From assembly GCA_964482615.1 (NCBI GenBank), contig CAYZYK010000001.1:2144-66143 (forward strand): 64,000 bases of DNA, read 5' to 3'. The notes below the pieces were generated by a model. The model saw only the letters and a list, made by a program, of their open reading frames with translations. It was not told where the DNA came from and made no database searches. Both the position numbers and the translations under genes were made by a program. The stretch is from an uncultured Candidatus Saccharibacteria bacterium. GTDB lineage: Bacteria; Patescibacteriota; Minisyncoccia; Minisyncoccales; CAYZYK01. This document shows, piece by piece, positions 7,747 to 18,095 of the stretch (its first letter is position 1; the number at the start of each line of letters is the position of its first letter).

Positions 7747-7822
7747 TGGTGCGCGTGGATGGATTTGAACCATCGACCTTTCGCTTATAAGACGAATGCT
7801 CTAACCCCTGAGCTACACGCGC
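7747..7822 (-). tRNA. tRNA with anticodon UAU (AUA-decoding tRNA-Ile), CCA encoded
   Basis: Acceptor GCGCGTG/CACGCGC + ACCA. D-stem GCTC/GAGC. Anticodon stem TTCGT/GCGAA enclosing loop CTTATAA, so positions 34-36 are TAT. T-arm GATGG-TTCAAAT-CCATC; 76 nt. Confidence 0.7.
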
Positions 7823-10800
7823 TTATTTTTTCTTCTTTTTCTTCTTGTTTTTTTGTATTTTCCGATTATATTTTCGAATTCTTCTCTTTCTATAGTTTCT
7901 TTTTCAATTAAAGTTTGAGCTAACTTATTAAGTAGTTTTTTATTTTTCTTTAAAACCTTTGTTGCTTCTTTTTCAGCAGCCTTTATAAATTTACTTATTT
8001 CTTTATCAATCTTAGAAGCTACTTTTTCAGAATAATCTTTTTGTTCTGCCATTTCATTGCCCAAAAATACCATTTCTTCTTCTGATCCGTAGGTTACAGG
8101 CCCTAGAGAAGACATACCATATTTTTTAACCAATTTACGAGCTAATTGAGTTGCTGTCTTAAGGTCGTTTGATGCTCCGGTAGTTATTTCTCCAAACTTT
8201 ATATTCTCAGCACAATATCCACCCAATAAGGTGGTGAGTTCTGCTGAAAATTCAGACTTAGTTTTCATTTTTTTCTCCTCTCTTGGCATTTTCAAAGTAT
8301 AGCCCGCTGCCATGCCCCTGGCAATTATTGATATTTTCCTAACAGGTTCTGCTTTGGGAGAGAAAGTAGAAGCTAAAGCATGTCCTGCCTCGTGAAAAGC
8401 AGCTATTTTCTTTTCTTGCTCAGACAAAACGTGACTTTTTCTTTCGGGTCCCAAGAGAACCTTTTCAATTGATTCTAATAATTCTTCTTGATGAACTTTA
8501 GATTTGTTTCTTTTTGCAGCAAGTATAGCTGCTTCGTTCATTAAATTGGCTAAATCAGCTCCCGAAAATCCTGGAGTTCTTTCTGCTACTTCTCTTAAAT
8601 TACAATCCGAATCTAAAGGTTTTCCTTTAGAATGAATTTTTAATATCTTTTCTCTGTCATTTATATCAGGTAGATTTAAGACCACTCTCCTGTCAAACCT
8701 CCCTGGTCTCAAAAGAGCGGGGTCTAAGACATCGGGTCTGTTCGTTGCTGCAGCAACGATAATAGAAGATTCTCTCTCAAAACCATCCATTTCAGTTAAA
8801 ATCTGATTCAATGTTTGTTCTCTTTCATCGTGACCCCCACCAATTCCAGCTCCTCTTCTTCTGCCAACAGCATCCAGTTCATCAATGAAAACAATGGCTG
8901 GTTGGTTCTTTTTGGCAGTAGAAAATAAATCTCTTACTCTACTGTTGTGCAAAAGAGTTGGTTTTTCTCCACCAAAGAAAGCTTCATTTTGGCAACCACA
9001 AAGATCATAAACATAGCCAGAGTAGGGTCTTTTTGTAACCTTTTTAACAATTGGTTTCTTGAGTTGATTGGGGGAATTTTTAATTTTTCTAAATGGATGA
9101 GAGGTCTTTCCAATTCTAAGAACCCAATAGGTAGTCTGAGGAAGGGGTCTGTCCTTAGTTTTTCTTCCTTTTTTAGTTTTGGCCTCTCTAATACTTGCTT
9201 GTATTCCATGCATTGCACAAAGCCAAGCTAATTCTTTGATAAGTTGATGACTCACAGAACTGACAGTTAGCCTTCCTTCTTGGGTAGTGTATCCATCTCC
9301 TCTATAAAGCCCCTTTAAATAATTTAAAAAGTAATTTTTGGGTAGTTCCCATAGGAATTCAGGAATATGCTTGTGGTGACTACCATTTCCACAATGTTTT
9401 TCAAAAAATTCTCCCAATACTTTACCAAAAAAAGCAATTCTACAACTATTGTCTTCAGTAAAAGTTACATATGGTTCTTGGTTAGTTAATAATTTATTCA
9501 TTAAAGAAATACAATCTTGATGAAGTTTTTTTTCATGGCTGCCAAATATAAATTCTACTCCATATTCAATTTTTCTTCCTTCAGCGGTATAATATCCTAG
9601 AAGTTTCATTAAAGAGGGGGTGGTTTTTATTTCCTGAGGAATTTCTCTTTCCTGATAATTCTTCGCTAACCAAAGGTCCCTAGGTTGATATTTATTTCTT
9701 TGCCAATTGCTGATTGTTGTTTGAGATACTCCAAGTTGGTCAGCTAATTCATGTTGGTAAACTTTTCCTTGTCTAGCTAAAGCAAAACTAAATTTTTCTT
9801 CTAACTCCTCAATCTCAAAATTTTTATTCCATATCGGTAGAACCTTCTTTTTTGTTTTTTTGAATTGATGAGATTTTACTTTGTGGGTTGTTCCAACTCC
9901 AGGCACAAAAGTACTTCTTACCTTGAAAGGTAAATTAACTAGGATATCTCCAGGATTTAAGTCTTTTGCTTTTTTTGGGGTAATAAGATTTCTAGCTCGC
10001 ACAAACACGCTGTGATCACCGGTGGTTTTAATTTTTCCTCCTAAATATTTAATTTCATAAATTTCATCAACTTTATGGCGATAAACACCTTTTATTTGTT
10101 GCCAACAACTTCTTCCAAAAAACTTCTTAGTTGAGTTTTTAGAAGCACTCCCAAATTTTGTATCTAAAGATTTGTATCCTAAAGTTTTTATCCCTATAAC
10201 TGGAATTACATAATCGTCTTTTTTTTGAGGGTAGAATTGATCAACAAGCTCTGAGATTGGCAAAAGCTTGGTCTCGTTTTCAGTTTTAACTAATATTGGA
10301 GTATCACCAGTTACACTGGCTCCGACTCCGACAAATAACTCAATAAATTCAGAACCAGAAATTGAATAAAAGGGTACTTTAGCTTCGTTTGCTACCGCTC
10401 TGGCTAATAAGGTTTTTCCGGTTCCAGGAGCGCCCACCAGTAGTATTCCTTTAGGAATTCTTGCCCCCATTTTTAAATATTTCTTTGGCTTTTTTAAAAA
10501 ATCAACTACCTCTTTTAATTCTTCTTTGGCGTTTTCAAGTCCTGCAACGTCGTCAAAAGTAACCTTTTCTTTAGTTCCGCCCTTGGCCCCAAACAAACGG
10601 GCTTTTGCTTTCGAAAAATCAAGAGCCTGCATAGCTCCACCCTTAGCGCGCCTTAAGAGCAACCAAAAGAAAATTCCGAAGACAGCCAGAGGTAATATTC
10701 CAAAAATTAATAAAGGAAATAACCAAGAACTTAAACTTTCTTTTTTTTCTTCAACCTCAATTGTTAATTGGTTTGATTCTGTTAATTGGTTTAATTTTTC

Positions 10801-11070
10801 TTTTTCGGTCCCATAGGTTACAAGGGCTTCAAACAGGGGAGTGTCTGATTCTTTTCGGGAGATTGCCTTTTCATCATTTTTGTAGAAAACAGTTAATTCT
10901 TCCCCCGCAACAATAATTTTTTTAACCTCTTCTTGATTAATTTTTTTTGCTAATTCTGTTATACTAATCTTATTTTCGGACTCAAAGGGCTGGGCAACTA
11001 AACTAAAAACGCCTCCGATTATGAGAAAAATCAGGATTATGAAAATAAAGTTTTTAATTAATTTATTCAT
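7813..11070 (-). CDS. ftsH: ATP-dependent zinc metalloprotease FtsH, containing a ~458-aa intein between Walker A and Walker B
   Basis: N-terminal TM plus GILLVGAPGTGKTLLARAVANEAKVPFYSISGSEFIELFVGVGA|[intein]|SRVRDLFSTAKKNQPAIVFIDELDAVGRRRG...; zinc site FHEAGHAL; C-terminal protease domain. The stop TAG at 7815-7813 overlaps the 5' end of the adjacent tRNA by ~10 nt. Confidence 0.9.
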   Translation of the reverse strand: MNKLIKNFIFIILIFLIIGGVFSLVAQPFESENKISITELAKKINQEEVKKIIVAGEELTVFYKNDEKAISRKESDTPLFEALVTYGTEKEKLNQLTESNQLTIEVEEKKESLSSWLFPLLIFGILPLAVFGIFFWLLLRRAKGGAMQALDFSKAKARLFGAKGGTKEKVTFDDVAGLENAKEELKEVVDFLKKPKKYLKMGARIPKGILLVGAPGTGKTLLARAVANEAKVPFYSISGSEFIELFVGVGASVTGDTPILVKTENETKLLPISELVDQFYPQKKDDYVIPVIGIKTLGYKSLDTKFGSASKNSTKKFFGRSCWQQIKGVYRHKVDEIYEIKYLGGKIKTTGDHSVFVRARNLITPKKAKDLNPGDILVNLPFKVRSTFVPGVGTTHKVKSHQFKKTKKKVLPIWNKNFEIEELEEKFSFALARQGKVYQHELADQLGVSQTTISNWQRNKYQPRDLWLAKNYQEREIPQEIKTTPSLMKLLGYYTAEGRKIEYGVEFIFGSHEKKLHQDCISLMNKLLTNQEPYVTFTEDNSCRIAFFGKVLGEFFEKHCGNGSHHKHIPEFLWELPKNYFLNYLKGLYRGDGYTTQEGRLTVSSVSHQLIKELAWLCAMHGIQASIREAKTKKGRKTKDRPLPQTTYWVLRIGKTSHPFRKIKNSPNQLKKPIVKKVTKRPYSGYVYDLCGCQNEAFFGGEKPTLLHNSRVRDLFSTAKKNQPAIVFIDELDAVGRRRGAGIGGGHDEREQTLNQILTEMDGFERESSIIVAAATNRPDVLDPALLRPGRFDRRVVLNLPDINDREKILKIHSKGKPLDSDCNLREVAERTPGFSGADLANLMNEAAILAAKRNKSKVHQEELLESIEKVLLGPERKSHVLSEQEKKIAAFHEAGHALASTFSPKAEPVRKISIIARGMAAGYTLKMPREEKKMKTKSEFSAELTTLLGGYCAENIKFGEITTGASNDLKTATQLARKLVKKYGMSSLGPVTYGSEEEMVFLGNEMAEQKDYSEKVASKIDKEISKFIKAAEKEATKVLKKNKKLLNKLAQTLIEKETIEREEFENIIGKYKKTRRKRRKNKRV
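8944..10317 (-). mobile_element. Intein in FtsH (Ser1 ... HN, +1 Ser) with a LAGLIDADG homing-endonuclease domain and an HTH motif
   Basis: Extein sequence FVGVGA / SRVRDLF is contiguous in intein-free FtsH. The insert starts SVTGDTPILVK and ends YVYDLCGCQNEAFFGGEKPTLLHN. Internal motifs are LLGYYTAEGR and YLKGLYRGDGY (LAGLIDADG pair) and HELADQLGVSQTTISNWQRN (HTH). Boundaries were checked at nucleotide level: codon AGT at 10317-10315 and AAC at 8946-8944. Confidence 0.8.
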
Positions 11071-11180
11071 TCTTTCTTAAAACTAATATTAGACGATTAT
11101 TTTTATCCTCTATGCCTTATACAATAGCAGAAAAATTCTCAGAAATCAACTCTAAATTATAATTAAATTAAAAAGAAAAG

Positions 11181-11945
11181 TCCCCCGCGGGATAGCGCAA
11201 GGGACTCGGGATAGACAGGGATTATAGGTTTGTAAGAGGTTAGTTGGCGTTCACGACGTTCTCCAGGAAGCTGATAGCTTTCTGGAACGTCCTAAGAATT
11301 TTATACGTGCGGTTGCCCTCGACTTTCTCCCAGAAGGCTTTCTTTCTCTGGGCAGCCTTCTGTTTGAGGTCGCTTAGGTAGATGCTCTTCTTTTCGCAGG
11401 CAAACTCCAATTCGGCCCAGGCGACGTTAAAGGCCACTTGGTCCAAGATTCGGTATCCCTCCCACACCCGGGGATACATAGCTTTGCACCTTCGCAGAGT
11501 TTCCTCGGGTATGGAACTTGCTGCGGTCCTTCGGGCCCACTCCGTCAAGGAATTGGTACCCTCGATCTCCTCGATTTCCTCAAGAGAACCGGAGATGAGA
11601 AGTTGTTCTATCTCCTTTCTCTGGTCCTCAAAAGAGCTGTAGCAGGCCCCACAGACGATGTCCTGTATTTTCTGCTTCTCCTCCCCGCAGACCGGACAGG
11701 ACCGGATTAGCTTTTCGGCCTCGTCCAGGACCGGGTTGAGCTCTTTCTCAACCCATGCGCGAAGATCTTCGCGGCTGGCGCCGTAGCCCAGATTCTGGGG
11801 AACCTGGGGGTCTTCCTGTCCGTTTATTTCTTTCACGTAAGGGCTTTGCTGATGGGTGTTGGTACCCATTTGATTCTTCCTCCTTGAGGTTGGATTGCGT
11901 CGAAACTACGCTACTGTGGACCTATCCCTATCCCTGTCTATATTA
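11181..11945 (-). mobile_element. Compositionally foreign GC-rich island (about 55% GC against ~33% background) bounded by imperfect inverted repeats sharing ATAGACAGGGAT (left 11205-11225, right 11920-11945). It contains one ORF and its own terminator.
   Basis: The GC shift is abrupt at both edges. Left end: GGGATAGCGCAAGGGACTCGGGATAGACAGGGATTATAGG. Right end is the reverse complement of CCTAATATAGACAGGGATAGGGATAGG. Hairpin AGTCCC...GGGACT (11181-11207) is followed on the minus strand by TTTTCTTTTT, a terminator for the internal ORF. No transposase was recognised. Confidence 0.55.
11240..11869 (-). CDS. Hypothetical 209-aa acidic protein with a C-x2-C-x11-C-x2-C zinc-ribbon. Foreign GC3-rich codon usage, perfect Shine-Dalgarno.
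   Basis: AAGGAGGAAGAATCAAATG start context. Codons are mostly G/C-ending (cag, ccc, ggc, cgc, ctg), unlike all neighbouring genes. Motif SCPVCGEEKQKIQDIVCGAC. No family recognised. The overlapping plus-strand ORFs in the track are high-GC artefacts. Confidence 0.6.
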   Translation of the reverse strand: MGTNTHQQSPYVKEINGQEDPQVPQNLGYGASREDLRAWVEKELNPVLDEAEKLIRSCPVCGEEKQKIQDIVCGACYSSFEDQRKEIEQLLISGSLEEIEEIEGTNSLTEWARRTAASSIPEETLRRCKAMYPRVWEGYRILDQVAFNVAWAELEFACEKKSIYLSDLKQKAAQRKKAFWEKVEGNRTYKILRTFQKAISFLENVVNAN

Positions 11946-11957
11946 GGTACTATTCCT

Positions 11958-11986
11958 ATTATAACTTAAAACAAAAAACTTGTCAA
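11958..11986 (-). promoter_or_regulatory. Consensus sigma70 promoter (TTGACA-17-TATAAT) on the minus strand, reading into the island. Its -35 overlaps the 3' stem of the rpsA terminator hairpin.
   Basis: Minus-strand read: CTTGACAAGTTTTTTGTTTTAAGTTATAATAGG. -35 at 11986-11981, -10 at 11963-11958. The rpsA terminator ACTTGTC-N9-GACAAGT+T-run (11977-12000) overlaps it. Confidence 0.45.
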
Positions 11987-12030
11987 GAGTTTAGACAAGT
12001 TAATAGAAATTTATTATTTCCAAAAAGATA

Positions 12031-13107
12031 TTATTCCTCTGTTAAAGTTAAAGTTACTCTATATTGTTCTGGTTCAATTGATAAGATTTTGAATTTGTAT
12101 TTTTTCCCTATTTCCAACGTATTTTCCATTTTTTCTTTTGTTCTAAACTCAGAAATATGACAAAGACCTTGAATTTTAGGGGTGATTTGAACAAAAGCAC
12201 CAAAAGGATTAAACTTTGTGACTTCTCCCTCAACAACATCTCCTTTTTGGTGTTCTTTCTCGAATTCTTTCCAGGGATCCTTTTTCAATCTTTTCAAAGA
12301 CAAGAAAACCTGGTTGTTTTCATCAATTTTAATAATCTGAGCTTGAATAGTATCTCCCACTTTAACTATATCTGAAGGGTCTTCAATTAGTTGCCAATCT
12401 AGTTCTGATATATGACAAAGACCTTCAATTTGAGAAGTTTCTTTTTTTTCTTCTGCTGGGAACTTTATAAACGCTCCAAAATCTGCAATACCACTTATTT
12501 TACCTTTTATTACATCTCCCTCTTTGTATTCTTTCAATACTTCTTTGATTTCCTCTTTTGTTTTTGCTTTTTCAGATAGAATTAATTTATCTTCTTTTTT
12601 GTCCAAATCAAGTATTTTAACTTCTAAAGTTTCTCCAATAAACTCTTGAAGTTTCTTGAGAATCTTTTCTTTATTTCCATCTTCAACTCTTGGATAGTGT
12701 TCTGGTGAAAGCTGGGAAACAGGTAAAAAGGCCTTAATACTTTTTACTTTAGATAAAAGTCCTCCTTTGTTTGCCCCCAGGATTTGGACATCTATAGTTT
12801 CTCCTTTTTTCTTTTTCTCTTTTAATTTTTCCCAAGCCATTTCTTTTTCAGCTTGACTCAGAGAAAGTTCTCTGTATCCATCTTCGTTTTCTAAGTCAAC
12901 TATTTTAGCTGAGACCTTATCTCCCAAATCAACCTTTTTTAAAGAGTCTCTTGCTCTTTGATACTCCCTGCCGTAGATTATACCGGTTCCGTAAAGCCCC
13001 AAATCAACAAAAACAGCAGCTCTGTCTCTAGCTATAATTTCTCCTTCAACTATCTCTCCCACAGAAGGTGGTCCTATTAAATTTTTAGTCTTTTTCATAT
13101 TTTGCAC
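12031..13107 (-). CDS. rpsA: 30S ribosomal protein S1 (short, four S1 domains)
   Basis: 358 aa with four S1-fold repeats (GEIVEGEIIARDRAAVFVDLG..., DVQILGANKGGLL..., GDVIKGKISGIADFGAFIKF..., GDVVEGEVTKFNPFGAFVQI...). Confidence 0.8.
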   Translation of the reverse strand: MQNMKKTKNLIGPPSVGEIVEGEIIARDRAAVFVDLGLYGTGIIYGREYQRARDSLKKVDLGDKVSAKIVDLENEDGYRELSLSQAEKEMAWEKLKEKKKKGETIDVQILGANKGGLLSKVKSIKAFLPVSQLSPEHYPRVEDGNKEKILKKLQEFIGETLEVKILDLDKKEDKLILSEKAKTKEEIKEVLKEYKEGDVIKGKISGIADFGAFIKFPAEEKKETSQIEGLCHISELDWQLIEDPSDIVKVGDTIQAQIIKIDENNQVFLSLKRLKKDPWKEFEKEHQKGDVVEGEVTKFNPFGAFVQITPKIQGLCHISEFRTKEKMENTLEIGKKYKFKILSIEPEQYRVTLTLTEE

Positions 13108-13230
13108 AATAATGACATAATATAATATTATTGCATTTTTTTCAAGTCAACCCCCAAATCAGAAGTTGAATTTTTGTAAAAATTTTGTTAAAATTGAAGA
13201 ATAAAACAAGAATTAAAAAACTGATATACT

Positions 13231-13881
13231 ATGAAAATTACTTGGGCAGGTCAATCCTGCTTTAAAATTATTGTTTCAAAAGGAAGAAAGAAAGTAAAAA
13301 TAGCAATTGATCCCTTTGATAAGAAAGTAGGACTTAAAACACCCTCTTTTTCAGCTGACATTTTACTTGTAACTCATGATCATCACGACCATAATAATAC
13401 AAAAGCCATAAAAGGCAATCCCTTTTTGATTGATGGTCCGGGAGAGTATGAGGTAAAGAAGATTTTTATTAAAGGCATTTCTTCTTTTCATGACGATATT
13501 AAGGGGAAAGAGAGGGGAAAAAACACGATTTATACTATCAGAAATGGGGCAATGACACTATGTCACCTGGGAGACTTGGGACAGAAAGAATTAACCGATT
13601 CACAAGTTGAGAAGATAGGAACAGTTGATATTTTACTTGTTCCCGTAGGGGGAAATTTTACTATTTCAGCCCGAGAAGCTCAAGGCATAATTTCTCAGAT
13701 TGAACCTAAAATTGTTATCCCTATGCATTACAAAATTCCTAAACTTAAAGCAAAATTGGATAGTTTAAACAAATTCTTGAAGGTCATGGGTCAGAATTCA
13801 GTAAAAAAACAACCCAGCCTTTCCATTAAAGAAAAAAAACTGCCCAAAGAAAAAATGGAAATAGTGGTTCTTCATTCCTGA
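13231..13881 (+). CDS. Metallo-beta-lactamase-fold metal-dependent hydrolase (UPF0173-like)
   Basis: 216 aa; LLVTHDHHDHNN (HxHxDH zinc motif), later conserved His/Asp, overall YtkL/UPF0173-like. Confidence 0.65.
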   Translation: MKITWAGQSCFKIIVSKGRKKVKIAIDPFDKKVGLKTPSFSADILLVTHDHHDHNNTKAIKGNPFLIDGPGEYEVKKIFIKGISSFHDDIKGKERGKNTIYTIRNGAMTLCHLGDLGQKELTDSQVEKIGTVDILLVPVGGNFTISAREAQGIISQIEPKIVIPMHYKIPKLKAKLDSLNKFLKVMGQNSVKKQPSLSIKEKKLPKEKMEIVVLHS

Positions 13882-14315
13882 TGAAAAAAAAAGAGAAATT
13901 AAAAGAATTATTAAAGAAGAGTCAGAAACTATCCAAAAGGAAAAAAGAAGCAATTTTAATTTTAATAGTTGCTATCCTGGCATTAATCCTTGGTTATGTC
14001 TGGTTAAAACAAACCAAACAAAGACTAGAAGAATTCAGAAAAGAAGATTTAAGAGGAGAATATAATATTTCATCAATTAAAAAAGAAATAGAGAAGAACT
14101 TTCAGGAAATAAATCTTCCGGATATTGGGATAGAGAAAGAGAGAGTAGAAAGATTAAGAAAATTGATAGAAGAGAACCCAGAAGAGGCAGAGCTTTTACT
14201 TGAAAGAATAAAACAGGACCCCGAGAAAACAAATCAATTAATAGAAGATTTTGAAAAATCTTTAACAGAAAACGAAGAGAAAAGCTCTGTTGAAAACGAA
14301 CTAAAAAAAGAATAA
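13881..14315 (+). CDS. Hypothetical membrane-anchored K/E-rich coiled-coil protein
   Basis: 144 aa; one TM helix ([19 protein letters not shown]) then charged low-complexity sequence. Start overlaps the previous stop. Confidence 0.4.
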
Positions 14316-14317
14316 AA

Positions 14318-16789
14318 ATGGTAAAATCTACAGAACAAAAAAACAAAATAGGCGAGGTTAAAGAGAGGAGAATAACAGAGGAGATGAAAGAAAGTTACAT
14401 TGATTATGCAATGTCTGTTATTATTTCAAGGGCTTTACCCGACGTAAGGGATGGATTGAAACCTGTTCACCGTAGGATTCTTTATGCTATGTACGAGATG
14501 GGACTGAGACACAATGGCAGGTTTAGAAAATCAGCTACTGTGGTTGGTGACACCTTGGGTAAATACCACCCTCACGGCGATGTAGCAGTTTATAATGCTC
14601 TAGTAAGAATGGTACAAGATTTTTCATTAAGATTGCCCCTTATTAGCGGCCAAGGAAACTTTGGGTCTCTTGATTCTGATCCCGCAGCCAGCATGAGATA
14701 TACAGAGTGCAGATTATCTCCAATTGGCGAGGGAATGTTAGCAGATATTGAAAAAGACACCGTTGATTTTATAGATAACTATGATGGAACAAGAAAAGAA
14801 CCCGTTGTTCTTCCTTCTCCCGTTCCTCAACTTTTATTAAACGGAGCTTTAGGAATTGCTGTTGGAATGGCAACCAGCATTCCTCCTCATAATCTATCTG
14901 AAATATGTAATGCTTGTTCTCATCTTATTGACAATCCCGATACTGAAACCTCAGATCTTTTTCAATTCATTAAAGGGCCTGATTTTCCTACTGGGGGAAT
15001 AATTTACAATAAAAAAGGAATGATTTCTGCTTACTCCCAGGGCAAAGGAAAGATTGTTTCCAGGGGAAAGGCTGATATAAAGAAAAAAAAGAAAGGTGGC
15101 GCTCAAATTGTGATTACTGAAATTCCTTATCAAGTTCAAAAGTCCAGCTTGGTTCAGAAAATGGCTGATTTAGTTTCCAACAAGAAGATAAAAGGAATAA
15201 GAGATATTAAAGATCTATCTGACAGGGAGGGTATGAGAATTTTGATAGATGTTAAAAAAGGAACTTCCCCTCGCAGGGTTTTAAATCGTCTCTACAAATT
15301 CACTGATCTTCAAAAGAATTTCTACTTGAATATGTTGGCTTTAGTTGATGGAATCCAACCCAAAATTCTTTCTTTAAGCGAAGCTCTCAATTACTTTATT
15401 GAGCATCGAAAGGAGGTTGTGAAAAGAAGAACTAAATTTGATTTGGAAAAAGCTAAGACAAGAGCTCATATTCTTGAAGGATTAAGTATTGCCATAAAGA
15501 ATATTGATAATGTTATAGCAACAATTAAAAAATCATCTAACAGGGATAAGGCAAAAACTAACTTAAAAAAGAAGTTTAAACTTTCCAACAAACAAGCAGA
15601 AGCTATTTTACAGATGAGGCTCCAATCTTTGGCCAAGCTTGAGAGAGAAAATATTGAGAAAGAACTTAAAGAAATAAAAGAAAAGATTAAAGAGTTAACC
15701 ACTATTCTAAAAAGCAAAAAGAAAATAAAAGGAATTATTAAAAAAGAACTTGAAGAAATAAAGAAAGAATACGGCGATGAAAGAAGAACAGAAGTTATTA
15801 TTGGAGGAATAAAAGAAATAAAAGAAGCAGATCTAGTCCCCCTTCAAGAAACCATTATTACTTTAACCGAAGGAGGTTATATTAAAAGATTAAAGCCCGG
15901 AACCTATAAGATTCAGAAAAGGGGAGGTAAAGGAATAATAGGAATGAAAACTATGAAGGGTGATATAGTAAAACATTTTGTCTCGGCCTCAACCCATGAT
16001 AAACTGCTTTTTTTCACCGACACAGGAAAGGCCTTTCAAACTAAAGTTTATGAGATTCCAGAAGGGAAGAGGGTAGCCCGAGGAAGAGGATTGGTTAACT
16101 TCTTGGATATTTCACCAAGAGAAAATGTACTTTCTTTGGTTCCCTTAAAGAAAGAAGAAGAGAAGGGGATAAAATATTTGGTTATGGTCACCAAAAATGG
16201 TAAAATTAAGAAAACGAAATTAGAGAAATTTAAAAACGTCAGAAGAACTGGAATCAGAGCTATAAAGTTGGGAAAAGGAGATTTGGTAAGAAAAGTCGTA
16301 AAAACAACAGGAAAAGATGAAATAATCTTAATTACCAAGAAAGGAAAATCAATAAGATTCAAAGAAAAAGAAGTAAGATCTATGGGAAGGGCAACTTATG
16401 GCGTAACAGGAATAAAACTGAGAAAGGGAGATGAAGTCATAGGTATGGATGTTATTCATAAAAAAGAAGACAAAAAGACAAAGAAGAAAAAATCAGTATT
16501 GGTAGTTACAGAAAAAGGTTATGGAAAAAGAACTAAACTTTCAAAGTACAGGACCCAAAAAAGAGGTGGAATAGGAATTAAGACAGCAAATATTACCAAA
16601 AAGACAGGAGAGATAGTTATCTCCAAAGTTCTGAGTTCAGAAGAGAAAGATCTGATTGTTATTTCTCGAAGAGGTCAGGTGATAAGAATTAAAATTAATT
16701 CTATCTCAACTCACAACAGAGCCACTCAGGGAGTAAGAATAATGAGATTGAAAGAAGGAGACGAGGTGGCTTCTGGAACCTGTATCTAA
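14318..16789 (+). CDS. gyrA: DNA gyrase subunit A (no intein)
   Basis: 823 aa; [33 protein letters not shown], active-site Tyr region, C-terminal beta-pinwheel repeats. Confidence 0.9.
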
Positions 16790-16802
16790 TTAACTCTATA
16801 TT

Positions 16803-17315
16803 ATGCTTAACCCAGAACAGGTTTTAAATAACCTTCAGTTAAAAGCAAATATGTCAGCTACAGAATTTGGTTCTGGAGCTGGAGGATTCAGTATTCCCCT
16901 AGCTAAAAGACTGAGACAGGGAAAGGTTTATGCTTTGGATATTCTAGAAGAGAAACTATCTGCTTTGAAGAATAAAGCAACCTTAGAAAAAATAGCAAAC
17001 ATTGAAACTATAATTTGTAACTTGGAAGCAGAAAAAGGATCTACCCTGCACAGAGAAAGCCAGGACATAGTTTTAATACCTAATATTTTGTTTCAAGCAG
17101 AAGATGAGGAGTCTATGATGAAAGAAGCTAAAAGAATCTTAAAACAAGGAGGTGAACTCCTTGTTTTAGATTGGAAAAAAGAATCTCCGCTTGGTCCCAG
17201 AGAGGGGAGAATTTCAAAAGAAGAAGTTAAAGAAATTGCAGAGAAAATAGGCTTGAAACTAAAGAAGGAATTTTCACCGGGTGATTACCATTATGGTTTG
17301 ATTTTTACAAAATAA
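16803..17315 (+). CDS. Class I SAM-dependent methyltransferase
   Basis: 170 aa; motif I EFGSGAGGFSIPLAK, acidic residue after beta-2 (YALDIL), LVLDW motif. Confidence 0.65.
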   Translation: MLNPEQVLNNLQLKANMSATEFGSGAGGFSIPLAKRLRQGKVYALDILEEKLSALKNKATLEKIANIETIICNLEAEKGSTLHRESQDIVLIPNILFQAEDEESMMKEAKRILKQGGELLVLDWKKESPLGPREGRISKEEVKEIAEKIGLKLKKEFSPGDYHYGLIFTK

Positions 17316-17333
17316 TTAATTTATAATATATTA

Positions 17334-17663
17334 ATGAAAAAATTAATTCTTCTTTTAATAATATTGACCGGTTTATCATTTTTTTCATTTACCGAAGCCG
17401 TTAAAATAAAGAACCCTTTAAATGTTGACACTTTTGACGATCTCATTGATGCAATCGCGGGAATAATTGAATTAATTGTTGGTTCTCTGGCTGTTTTAAT
17501 GTTAATAATTGCTGCGATTTATTTTATTACAGCAGCAGGGGATCTCAACCAGATTAGCCAAGCAAAAACTATGGTAAAATATGCCATAATAGGAGTTATT
17601 ATTGCTTCTATGGCCCGAGCTATAGGGACCGTAGTTGAATCTCTTTTAAAAACAGCTCCCTAA
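17334..17663 (+). CDS. Small secreted two-helix membrane protein, TrbC/VirB2 (T4SS-pilin)-like, array member 1
   Basis: 109 aa; signal peptide then two hydrophobic helices around loop ITAAGDLNQISQAKTMVKYA. Same architecture as members 2-9. Confidence 0.45.
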   Translation: MKKLILLLIILTGLSFFSFTEAVKIKNPLNVDTFDDLIDAIAGIIELIVGSLAVLMLIIAAIYFITAAGDLNQISQAKTMVKYAIIGVIIASMARAIGTVVESLLKTAP

Positions 17664-17774
17664 GTTATTAACAGCGCCCTGTTGATAAGTTTCTTAATAT
17701 CCTCTAAAATATTACAATATAAAACCTAAAGGTCGAAATAAAGATTTTATAAATTACAAAAATAAATATTAATC

Positions 17775-18095
17775 ATGAAAAGAATAATATCTACCTTAAT
17801 TCTCAGCAGTCTATTGGCTTTACCTGTCGTGGCTGCAGCTCAAATTGGAGAACCCTCCCCACCCACTGACATTATTGCTATTCTTCAGACAATAAAATCA
17901 ATAATCTGGGCTGCCTTCACTGTTTTTGCTATCATTATGTTTATTTATGCTGGAATACTTTTCTTTACCGCAGGTGGTGATCCCGAAAAAGCAGCCAAAG
18001 CAAAAAGCGCTGTTATTTTCGGTGTAGCTGGAATAGCAATAGCTGTGTTGGGATATGGAATAGTTCAGATCGTTATGGGTATTATGGGTGCTTAA
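17775..18095 (+). CDS. T4SS-pilin-like small membrane protein, array member 2
   Basis: 106 aa; MKRIISTLILSSLLALPVVAAAQ signal, then helix-loop (FTAGGDPEKAAKAKSAVIFG)-helix. Confidence 0.45.
   Translation: MKRIISTLILSSLLALPVVAAAQIGEPSPPTDIIAILQTIKSIIWAAFTVFAIIMFIYAGILFFTAGGDPEKAAKAKSAVIFGVAGIAIAVLGYGIVQIVMGIMGA

Follow-up and report, generated by a model that had tools for sequence, protein, structure and literature searches.

A probable class 1 intein with helix-turn-helix and LAGLIDADG domains beside the pore-1 loop of FtsH in an uncultured Patescibacteria bacterium

A stretch of 64,000 nucleotides from an uncultured bacterium labelled Candidatus Saccharibacteria (GenBank assembly GCA_964482615.1, contig CAYZYK010000001.1, positions 2,144 to 66,143; the whole stretch is called the window here) carries an ftsH gene whose AAA+ module is interrupted by a large insert with the appearance of an intein. 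The gene lies on the minus strand, which had been left unstated in the original prediction that drew attention to the insert from the letters alone, and it forms a single uninterrupted open reading frame (ORF). The coordinates claimed for the insert (8944-10317, 458 amino acids) proved exact, as did its ends: SVTGDTPILV at the start and TLLHN at the finish, followed by SRVRDLF with Ser at position +1. The flanking extein sequence reads ...SEFIELFVGVGA / SRVRDLFSTAKK, the slash here and below marking a splice junction or insertion point, and the plus-strand translation of the same interval is full of stops. The features of the locus, in the order in which the precursor would be translated, are as follows.

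7813..11070, minus strand: ftsH precursor, single ORF without interruption, 1085 amino acids (N-extein, intein and C-extein)
10318..11070, minus strand: N-extein, residues 1-251, with Ala at position -1, gapless against 7tdo
10411-10434, minus strand: Walker A, GAPGTGKT, in the N-extein
10327-10338, minus strand: pore-1 loop, LFVG, in the N-extein
8944..10317, minus strand: putative class 1 intein (Ser1 ... His-Asn, Ser+1), 458 amino acids, precursor residues 252-709
9835..10317, minus strand: N-terminal lobe of the HINT domain, intein residues 1-161, delimited from an AlphaFold2 model and a homologue alignment
10288-10317, minus strand: block A, SVTGDTPILV, beginning with Ser1
10000-10026, minus strand: block B, TTGDHSVFV (T99-G-D-H102)
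9649..9828, minus strand: helix-turn-helix (HTH) accessory domain, a helical bundle, intein residues 164-223, between the N-terminal HINT lobe and the endonuclease
9679-9756, minus strand: HTH core, QHELADQLGVSQTTISNWQRNKYQPR, intein residues 188-213
9112..9633, minus strand: LAGLIDADG homing endonuclease domain, intein residues 229-402, LAGLIDADG_3 above cut-off
9574-9603, minus strand: LAGLIDADG motif 1, LLGYYTAEGR, intein residues 239-248 (E246)
9289-9321, minus strand: LAGLIDADG motif 2, YLKGLYRGDGY, intein residues 333-343 (D341)
between the LAGLIDADG domain and the C-terminal HINT lobe: linker
8944..9051, minus strand: C-terminal HINT lobe, intein residues 423-458
8968-9015, minus strand: block F, YVYDLCGCQNEAFFGG (YVYD438LCGCQNEAFFGG)
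8944-8958, minus strand: block G, ending TLLHN (H457-N458)
7813..8943, minus strand: C-extein, 376 amino acids and the stop, with the +1 Ser codon at 8941-8943
8872-8895, minus strand: Walker B, IVFIDELD, in the C-extein
8731-8748, minus strand: sensor-1, ATNRPD, in the C-extein
8380-8394, minus strand: zinc site, HEAGH, in the C-extein

The identity of the host protein is well defined. The precursor matches FtsH_ext, AAA, AAA_lid_3 and Peptidase_M41 (Pfam profiles PF06480, PF00004, PF17862 and PF01434) and scores 755.8 bits against the NCBIfam FtsH equivalog TIGR01241 (cut-off 600), in two stretches that flank the insert. Walker A and B, sensor-1, the arginine fingers, HEXXH and an N-terminal membrane/periplasmic region are all present. 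Once the insert is removed, a 627-residue FtsH is left that aligns end to end with solved FtsH structures (Thermotoga maritima 7tdo, E=1.4e-178). This extein-only alignment runs through the junction without a gap, the query reading ...fvgvgasrvrdlf... against FVGVGAARVRDLF in 7tdo, which bears out the claim that FtsH is normal up to FVGVGA and resumes at SRVRDLF.

The intein lies between A251 and S710 of the precursor, corresponding to A230/S231 of Escherichia coli FtsH; in the 644-residue annotation of the K-12 protein the site reads M-F225-V-G-V-G-A230 / S231-R-V-R-D. With the E. coli landmarks at 195-199 (Walker A GTGKT), 250-254 (IDEID) and 296-301 (ATNRPD), the position is between Walker A and Walker B, as originally proposed. 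More exactly, the insertion point falls 5 residues past the pore-1 aromatic and 3 past the FVG motif, where the helix towards Walker B begins. The pore-1 Phe of FtsH, F228 in the older 647-residue E. coli numbering, has an established role in substrate translocation. A 458-residue domain at this site should block a working ATPase ring, and FtsH function should require splicing. Because the insert adjoins the pore loop and separates nucleotide-binding motifs, the precursor would not be expected to assemble into an active hexamer before splicing, and the cell would therefore rely on efficient splicing.

The insert itself is recognised by two Pfam profiles, Intein_splicing (PF14890; 49.9-53.2 bits, cut-off 35.8) and LAGLIDADG_3 (PF14528; 31.7-34.4 bits, cut-off 22.5), and reaches 21-23 bits with TIGR01445, slightly under its cut-off of 24.5. 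The residues that characterise class 1 inteins are in place, namely Ser1, the TxxH of block B, the C-terminal His-Asn and Ser+1. Both LAGLIDADG motifs named in the original prediction were recovered, each with a catalytic acidic residue (E246 and D341). The nearest solved proteins by sequence are PI-PkoII (2cw7, E=6.4e-13; the alignment spans intein residues 230-374) and TFIIB mini-inteins. An AlphaFold2 model of the intein built from 38 homologues has a mean predicted local distance difference test score (pLDDT) of 92.2 and a predicted template modelling score (pTM) of 0.90, and its endonuclease domain follows the alpha-beta-beta-alpha-beta-beta-alpha order of secondary structure. The top matches of this model in the Protein Data Bank (Foldseek) are all intein-homing endonucleases: 2cw7 (E=1.6e-22), TliVMA (7qss, 7qsu), PhoVMA (7qst), PI-PfuI (1dq3) and PI-SceI (1vde). 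Mini-inteins (5o9i, 2lqm, 7oec) and the free-standing LAGLIDADG enzymes I-DmoI and I-Tsp061I (TM (target) about 0.6) are found further down. Judged by its sequence, the insert is very probably a genuine class 1 intein that is competent for splicing, and mechanistically it is no departure from the textbook intein. A bacterial intein-like (BIL) domain was considered in its place. BIL domains have the HINT fold in common with the FtsH intein. They are found in the variable parts of proteins that are not conserved, usually with neither an endonuclease nor a nucleophile at +1. The interruption of a conserved motif, the presence of Ser+1 and the LAGLIDADG endonuclease of the insert led to the rejection of this assignment.

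The XRE/Cro-like HTH that had been noticed between the HINT N-terminal lobe and the endonuclease is also present, with a Pfam call that is marginal for the window's own protein. On the whole protein HTH_3 scores 19.2-21.6 bits, under the cut-off of 23; the 73-residue sub-domain alone gives 23.1 bits with the same profile and 24.3 bits with Phage_CI_repr (cut-off 22). The family as a whole is clearer: HTH_3 matches 11 of 22 homologous sub-domains, at best with E=7.5e-7, and a profile of the sub-domain matches the P22 C2 repressor (E=7e-5), a LexA-type repressor, HipB and 434 repressor/Cro. The consensus of the sub-domain is ...SQxxIAxxxGVSQxTVxNWQRGxxxPR, and the helices in the AlphaFold2 model are at intein residues 169-181, 188-195, 199-206 and 213-223. 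These matches support acceptance of the accessory domain as a Cro/C1-type HTH. Among inteins with a homing endonuclease, TliVMA and PI-TkoII are already described as having accessory domains that bind DNA, in some cases HTH-like (PMC8966425), and the placement of the HTH before rather than after the endonuclease is a minor architectural variant.

From this anatomy we infer splicing activity, endonuclease activity and a cleavage target. The 1085-residue precursor would be translated as one chain and then spliced by the HINT domain in four steps: an N-O acyl shift at Ser1, helped by Thr99 and His102 of block B; transesterification onto Ser+1; cyclisation of Asn458, helped by His457; and an O-N shift. 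The products would be a 627-residue FtsH with the native ...GVGA-SRVRD... sequence, carrying the junction peptide ...FVGVGASRVRDLF..., and a free 458-residue endonuclease. The latter would be expected to cleave ftsH alleles that have no intein, its HTH adding DNA contacts, at the point where the extein sequences are fused; the predicted target is GAGTTATTTGTCGGAGTCGGAGCC^AGTAGAGTAAGAGATTTATTTTCT. After cutting, the intein would be copied into the empty allele through double-strand-break repair, that is, by homing.

The closest known systems are archaeal LAGLIDADG inteins, namely PI-PkoII/PI-TkoII (2cw7), TliVMA/PhoVMA (7qss, 7qst) and PI-PfuI (1dq3), in which, as in the FtsH intein, the HINT domain is split by a two-motif LAGLIDADG enzyme together with an accessory DNA-binding domain. 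They are its best matches in sequence (E=6e-13) and fold (E about 1e-22) at an identity of only 13-19%, and all of these inteins lie in active-site regions of ATPases or polymerases. In the VMA inteins the accessory domain stands between the endonuclease and the C-terminal HINT lobe, whereas in the FtsH intein the HTH follows the N-terminal HINT lobe and precedes the endonuclease. The bacterial FtsH host and the nucleophiles Ser1/Ser+1 further set the FtsH intein apart. Other AAA+/P-loop ATPases with inteins include the RFC small subunit, MCM, archaeal LonB, CDC48, DnaB and the clamp loader, as set out in two surveys (PMC4760082, PMC10710043); like the FtsH intein, they interrupt conserved ATPase motifs in ATPases that form rings. 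A clustering of inteins in P-loop/AAA+ domains is described in the former (PMC4760082), and the location of the FtsH intein fits it. Neither survey, as far as accessible, discusses the GVGA/S site beside the pore-1 loop. Another ATP-dependent protease subunit, the chloroplast ClpP of Chlamydomonas, also has an intein (cited in PMC5784728 and PMC4760082). Compared through the literature, the ClpP intein lies in a proteolytic subunit and the FtsH intein in an ATPase, and site and intein lineage differ.

Relatives of the FtsH intein are numerous. An intein-only query against 5.8 billion protein clusters returned 92 matches, nearly all FtsH/AAA proteins with PF14890, and in most of these clusters the junctions read ...[FL]VGVGA / SVTGDTP ... 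LLHN / SRVRD.... Among GTDB species, each represented in the scan by one genome, at least 309 encode a relative. Carriers among the Patescibacteria include Paceibacterales, Jorgensenbacteria, Levyibacteriota, Blackburnbacteria and many metagenome-assembled genomes (MAGs) labelled Saccharibacteria; beyond these, the family is found in Acidobacteriota, Chloroflexota, Planctomycetota, Eisenbacteria, Gemmatimonadota, Armatimonadota, Verrucomicrobiota, Clostridia and Actinomycetota, the last including the cultured Glycomyces arizonensis DSM 44726. The search for inserts at the same site in FtsH homologues, suggested together with the original prediction, was answered by the best 80 genome loci: of those with readable junctions, nearly all have the insert at the GVGA/S site of FtsH. 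Most database entries for these genes go under the names 'AAA family ATPase, partial', 'FtsH' or 'LAGLIDADG family homing endonuclease'. Many are incomplete or begin within the intein, with the result that ftsH genes with an intein are often fragmented or mis-called in metagenome annotations. All of the 92-cluster matches are 800 amino acids or shorter, though full-length intein-bearing FtsH proteins of about 1080 residues exist (P0093, P0133).

Across many phyla, 60 of 60 full-length same-site inteins keep T99, H102, D438, E246 and D341 at an overall identity of about 50%; S1, HN and the +1 S/T are likewise invariant in these 60, counts that are biased by an extraction pattern that required these residues. 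S1 and the HN of block G are also invariant in a homologue alignment (A2). The nearest intein has 64% amino-acid identity to the window's. Identity of the intein and of the extein core across phyla is moderately correlated (r=0.43), and inteins of other phyla are 50-55% identical to that of the window, about the identity of the highly conserved AAA core; horizontal spread therefore fits better than strict vertical descent. Mini-inteins of 176-212 residues occur at the same GVGA/S site, lacking exactly the HTH and the endonuclease (P0062, P0064, P0065, P0071). The classical homing cycle passes through three stages, represented here by full-length, mini and empty alleles, of which the minis are the expected decay stage. 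A scan of IMG/VR for a viral vector gave only distant inteins (20-37% identity, mostly from giant-virus MAGs) and no close relative.

FtsH has at least four intein sites in public data: GTGK/C, GVGA/S, AP/C and AA/TNRPD. One protein carries an intein at the P-loop (P0133, GTGK/C...SHN/T), and in a Blastocatellia MAG the Walker B strand is interrupted by a second intein of unrelated type (L017, AP/C...CHN/CIIFVDEID). The lineage of the window's intein, with its HTH and LAGLIDADG plan and at about 42% identity, is also found at ...AA / TNRPD, immediately before the sensor-1 Asn (P0023-P0026, P0028, P0029 and L033, with P0027, P0035, P0047, P0058 and P0066 also listed for this site), and two ftsH genes hold GVGA/S and sensor-1 inteins together (L003, P0004). 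Outside FtsH, relatives occupy the sensor-1-equivalent site of CDC48-type proteins (P0053, P0075, P0082; VVIGA/SVTGDT) and the RFC small subunit at NA/SDERG (P0092). The pattern of occupied AAA+ sites suggests site switching within the AAA+ fold. Further relatives of the intein were seen in a GTPase/SIS protein (P0048) and in FlaI (P0090).

The family may extend to eukaryotes. Eight proteins from Kickxellomycotina (Coemansia spp. and Spiromyces aspiralis; P0056, P0063, P0067, P0073, P0074, P0076, P0081, P0085) have a same-site intein, YVGVGA / SVTGDT...LLHN / S[KR], with degenerate LAGLIDADG motifs such as LLGVYSARG and YLRGNG. The extein of one of them (P0073) is YME1, the mitochondrial i-AAA protease, with 568 bits to 6az0 versus 432 bits to FtsH. 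These fungi possibly carry a homologous YME1 intein, a candidate for which bacterial contamination of the contigs is also possible.

Full-text literature searches found no paper describing an FtsH or YME1 intein. FtsH is absent from the top-15 host lists and the main text, as far as accessible, of PMC4760082 and PMC10710043; an entry in the supplementary tables of the main bacterial survey is possible. Nor does the accessible text of the 2018 survey of eukaryotic inteins mention a YME1 intein. Papers that pair FtsH with the word intein (on the jumbo phage MIJ3, a chloroplast genome and Methylococcus) turned out to be coincidental co-mentions. The original prediction's remark that such an intein was not catalogued thus stands for the papers searched and fails for public sequences, in which the element is common. 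The FtsH intein is probably under-described rather than unknown, its sequences being abundant in public databases.

The recent history of the element is best approached through the nearest relatives of its host. An extein-only query retrieved 120 closest FtsH orthologues, all of the Patescibacteria type; 118 have no intein, and the only two that do are the window's protein and P0133, the latter at a different site. The closest orthologue (P0095; 632 amino acids, 90% identical) is encoded on contig CAZDPT010000001.1 of GCA_964507665.1, and is also found in Logan run SRR7048227. It is free of inteins, and the genes of its locus are in synteny with those of the window (S1 protein, 209-residue ORF, ftsH, pseudouridine synthase and L19) at 70-85% nucleotide identity. 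The same organism has an intein of about 450 residues with LAGLIDADG in its GyrA (L165:1608-5456), at the classical site AAMRY/CITGDS...GFISHN/TETK adjoining the catalytic Tyr. In the window, GyrA (823 amino acids, gyrA at 14318-16789 on the plus strand) is empty at that site, AASMRY/TECR, between 14701 and 14702. The FtsH and GyrA inteins are thus distributed reciprocally between the two close relatives, each having the one that the other lacks. Against the background of 70-85% identity, a single tract stands out.

10388..11916, no strand: tract of 1,529 bp with 100% identity to the intein-less relative (L162/L165, GCA_964507665.1)

Most of the N-extein lies within the tract, as do the intergenic region, the 209-residue ORF and 47 bp more; the tract ends 70 bp short of the N-junction of the intein, and past the intein identity is again about 80%. 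A Logan contig from the window's organism (L164, sister run SRR7048218) is 100% identical to window positions 11887-17800 and reaches 30 bp into the tract before it stops. Our reading, which assumes the k=31 of Logan assemblies, is that the contig breaks where, in the de Bruijn graph, two co-occurring genomes converge on shared sequence; if this holds, the tract is therefore real shared sequence and both organisms are in the same sample set. It is a probable tract of recent inter-species recombination, which either began when the endonuclease cleaved the homing site or represents strand exchange halted at the 1.4-kb heterology. Assuming one tract per roughly 15 kb of comparable sequence, we estimate the chance of its ending within 70 bp of the junction at roughly 2%. 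The adjoining tract is suggestive of homing, not proof of it.

Several observations weigh against a splicing and recently mobile intein. The canonical His of block F is absent from the whole FtsH-intein family (NEAFF, compared with the HNF of other inteins), and the details of Asn cyclisation may therefore differ. The G+C contents of intein and extein are nearly equal (33.6% and 35.8%), and composition therefore gives no hint that the intein arrived recently. The nearest empty allele, that of P0095, reads GVGA-GRVRD, with Gly (GGT codon) in place of Ser+1, and therefore could host no splicing intein without co-conversion of that codon; the allele may be resistant to cleavage. No intein-bearing allele in the available data is close enough to be the donor. 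In addition, a signature of co-conversion did not emerge, the junction-proximal flanks being no closer to the available intein-bearing alleles than to the intein-less relative. On the other side stand the invariant catalytic residues and the empty site in the nearest relative. The element probably is, or recently was, mobile in the lineage of the window, and these two lines make an endonuclease that is active at present somewhat more likely than not. A much broader scenario can be drawn, in which the family is homing now in natural populations of the candidate phyla radiation (CPR); its endonuclease initiated the 1,529-bp tract between co-occurring species that are otherwise about 77% identical, driving inter-species gene conversion in an essential gene; and it colonised the GVGA/S site of FtsH, the sensor-1 sites of FtsH and CDC48 and RFC, and crossed into the nuclear YME1 of Kickxellomycotina. 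As a whole this scenario is possible and, in our judgement, doubtful.

The insert might instead serve its host. In a domesticated or conditional intein, splicing would be regulated by redox state, temperature, or the binding of nucleotide or substrate and would act as a post-translational switch on FtsH rather than being purely selfish. Its position beside the pore-1 loop, in an active region of the ATPase, is of a type for which functional importance has been argued (PMC4760082), and the intein is strongly conserved across phyla, at roughly 50% identity. Block F moreover holds a Cys-Gly-Cys (DLC440GC442), conserved in 58/60 (C440) and 53/60 (C442) of the same-site inteins, with both splice nucleophiles being Ser; it could be structural or a redox/metal site. 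Distribution, however, is sporadic, as the 118 intein-free orthologues and the empty site of the closest relative illustrate, mini-intein decay forms exist, and the full conservation of the endonuclease catalytic residues points to selection for mobility. Regulated splicing is hence an unlikely account of the element. A non-splicing remnant, kept as a permanent extra domain or sitting in an inactive gene while another ftsH copy serves the cell, would be compatible with the missing block-F His, and the view of the genome is limited to 64 kb, leaving room for a second ftsH elsewhere. The window itself contains neither a second ftsH nor a second copy of the FtsH intein. Moreover, the ORF is uninterrupted, the splice-site residues are all intact and invariant across homologues, and a domain of 458 residues placed 3 residues from the pore loop would appear sterically incompatible with an AAA+ ring, judging from structures such as 7tdo. 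We regard such a remnant as very unlikely.

A chimeric join during assembly has also to be weighed, as the window derives from a metagenomic contig and the break of the Logan contig at 11887 indicates ambiguity in the assembly graph nearby. Chimeras would hardly produce an insert that is exactly in frame with perfect intein termini, and the same architecture recurs at the same codon in hundreds of independent assemblies, including the isolate Glycomyces arizonensis DSM 44726; the chance of an artefact is negligible. A split gene was considered as well and rejected. A spliced class 1 intein thus remains the preferred explanation of the locus.

Such an intein leaves the understanding of how inteins work unchanged. 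Its interest lies rather in the host and the family: a central enzyme of proteostasis and membrane quality control joins the list of intein hosts, with a site directly beside the substrate-translocating pore loop. A large family that spans many phyla, with full-length and mini forms and a candidate fungal YME1 allele, makes a good system for studying intein spread between distant lineages. It is equally suited to the study of insertion-site switching within one protein fold, and to asking whether homing endonucleases promote the exchange of adjoining essential-gene sequence between co-occurring uncultured bacteria. Protein engineering might also benefit from a cysteine-independent Ser1/Ser+1 intein of this kind, whose meganuclease is compact and HTH-guided.

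The window holds two further features of note. A second intein is present in IF-2 (infB) at positions 1-875 on the plus strand, in an ORF that runs off the start of the window and ends at 2288. It scores 52.5 bits with LAGLIDADG_3 and 41.8 bits with Intein_splicing, its N-terminal part lying outside the window. Its C-junction is ...VYDLTVSESHNFVAERMFIHN/TAILDYIRKS (...ERMFIHN/TAILDYIRKS) between 875 and 876, and by position the site looks like the P-loop site of the G domain. At the 3' end of ftsH, a tRNA-Ile gene (anticodon UAU; 7747-7822, minus strand) overlaps the final 10 nucleotides of the coding sequence, including the stop codon at 7813-7815, and is directly followed downstream by a tRNA-Val gene.

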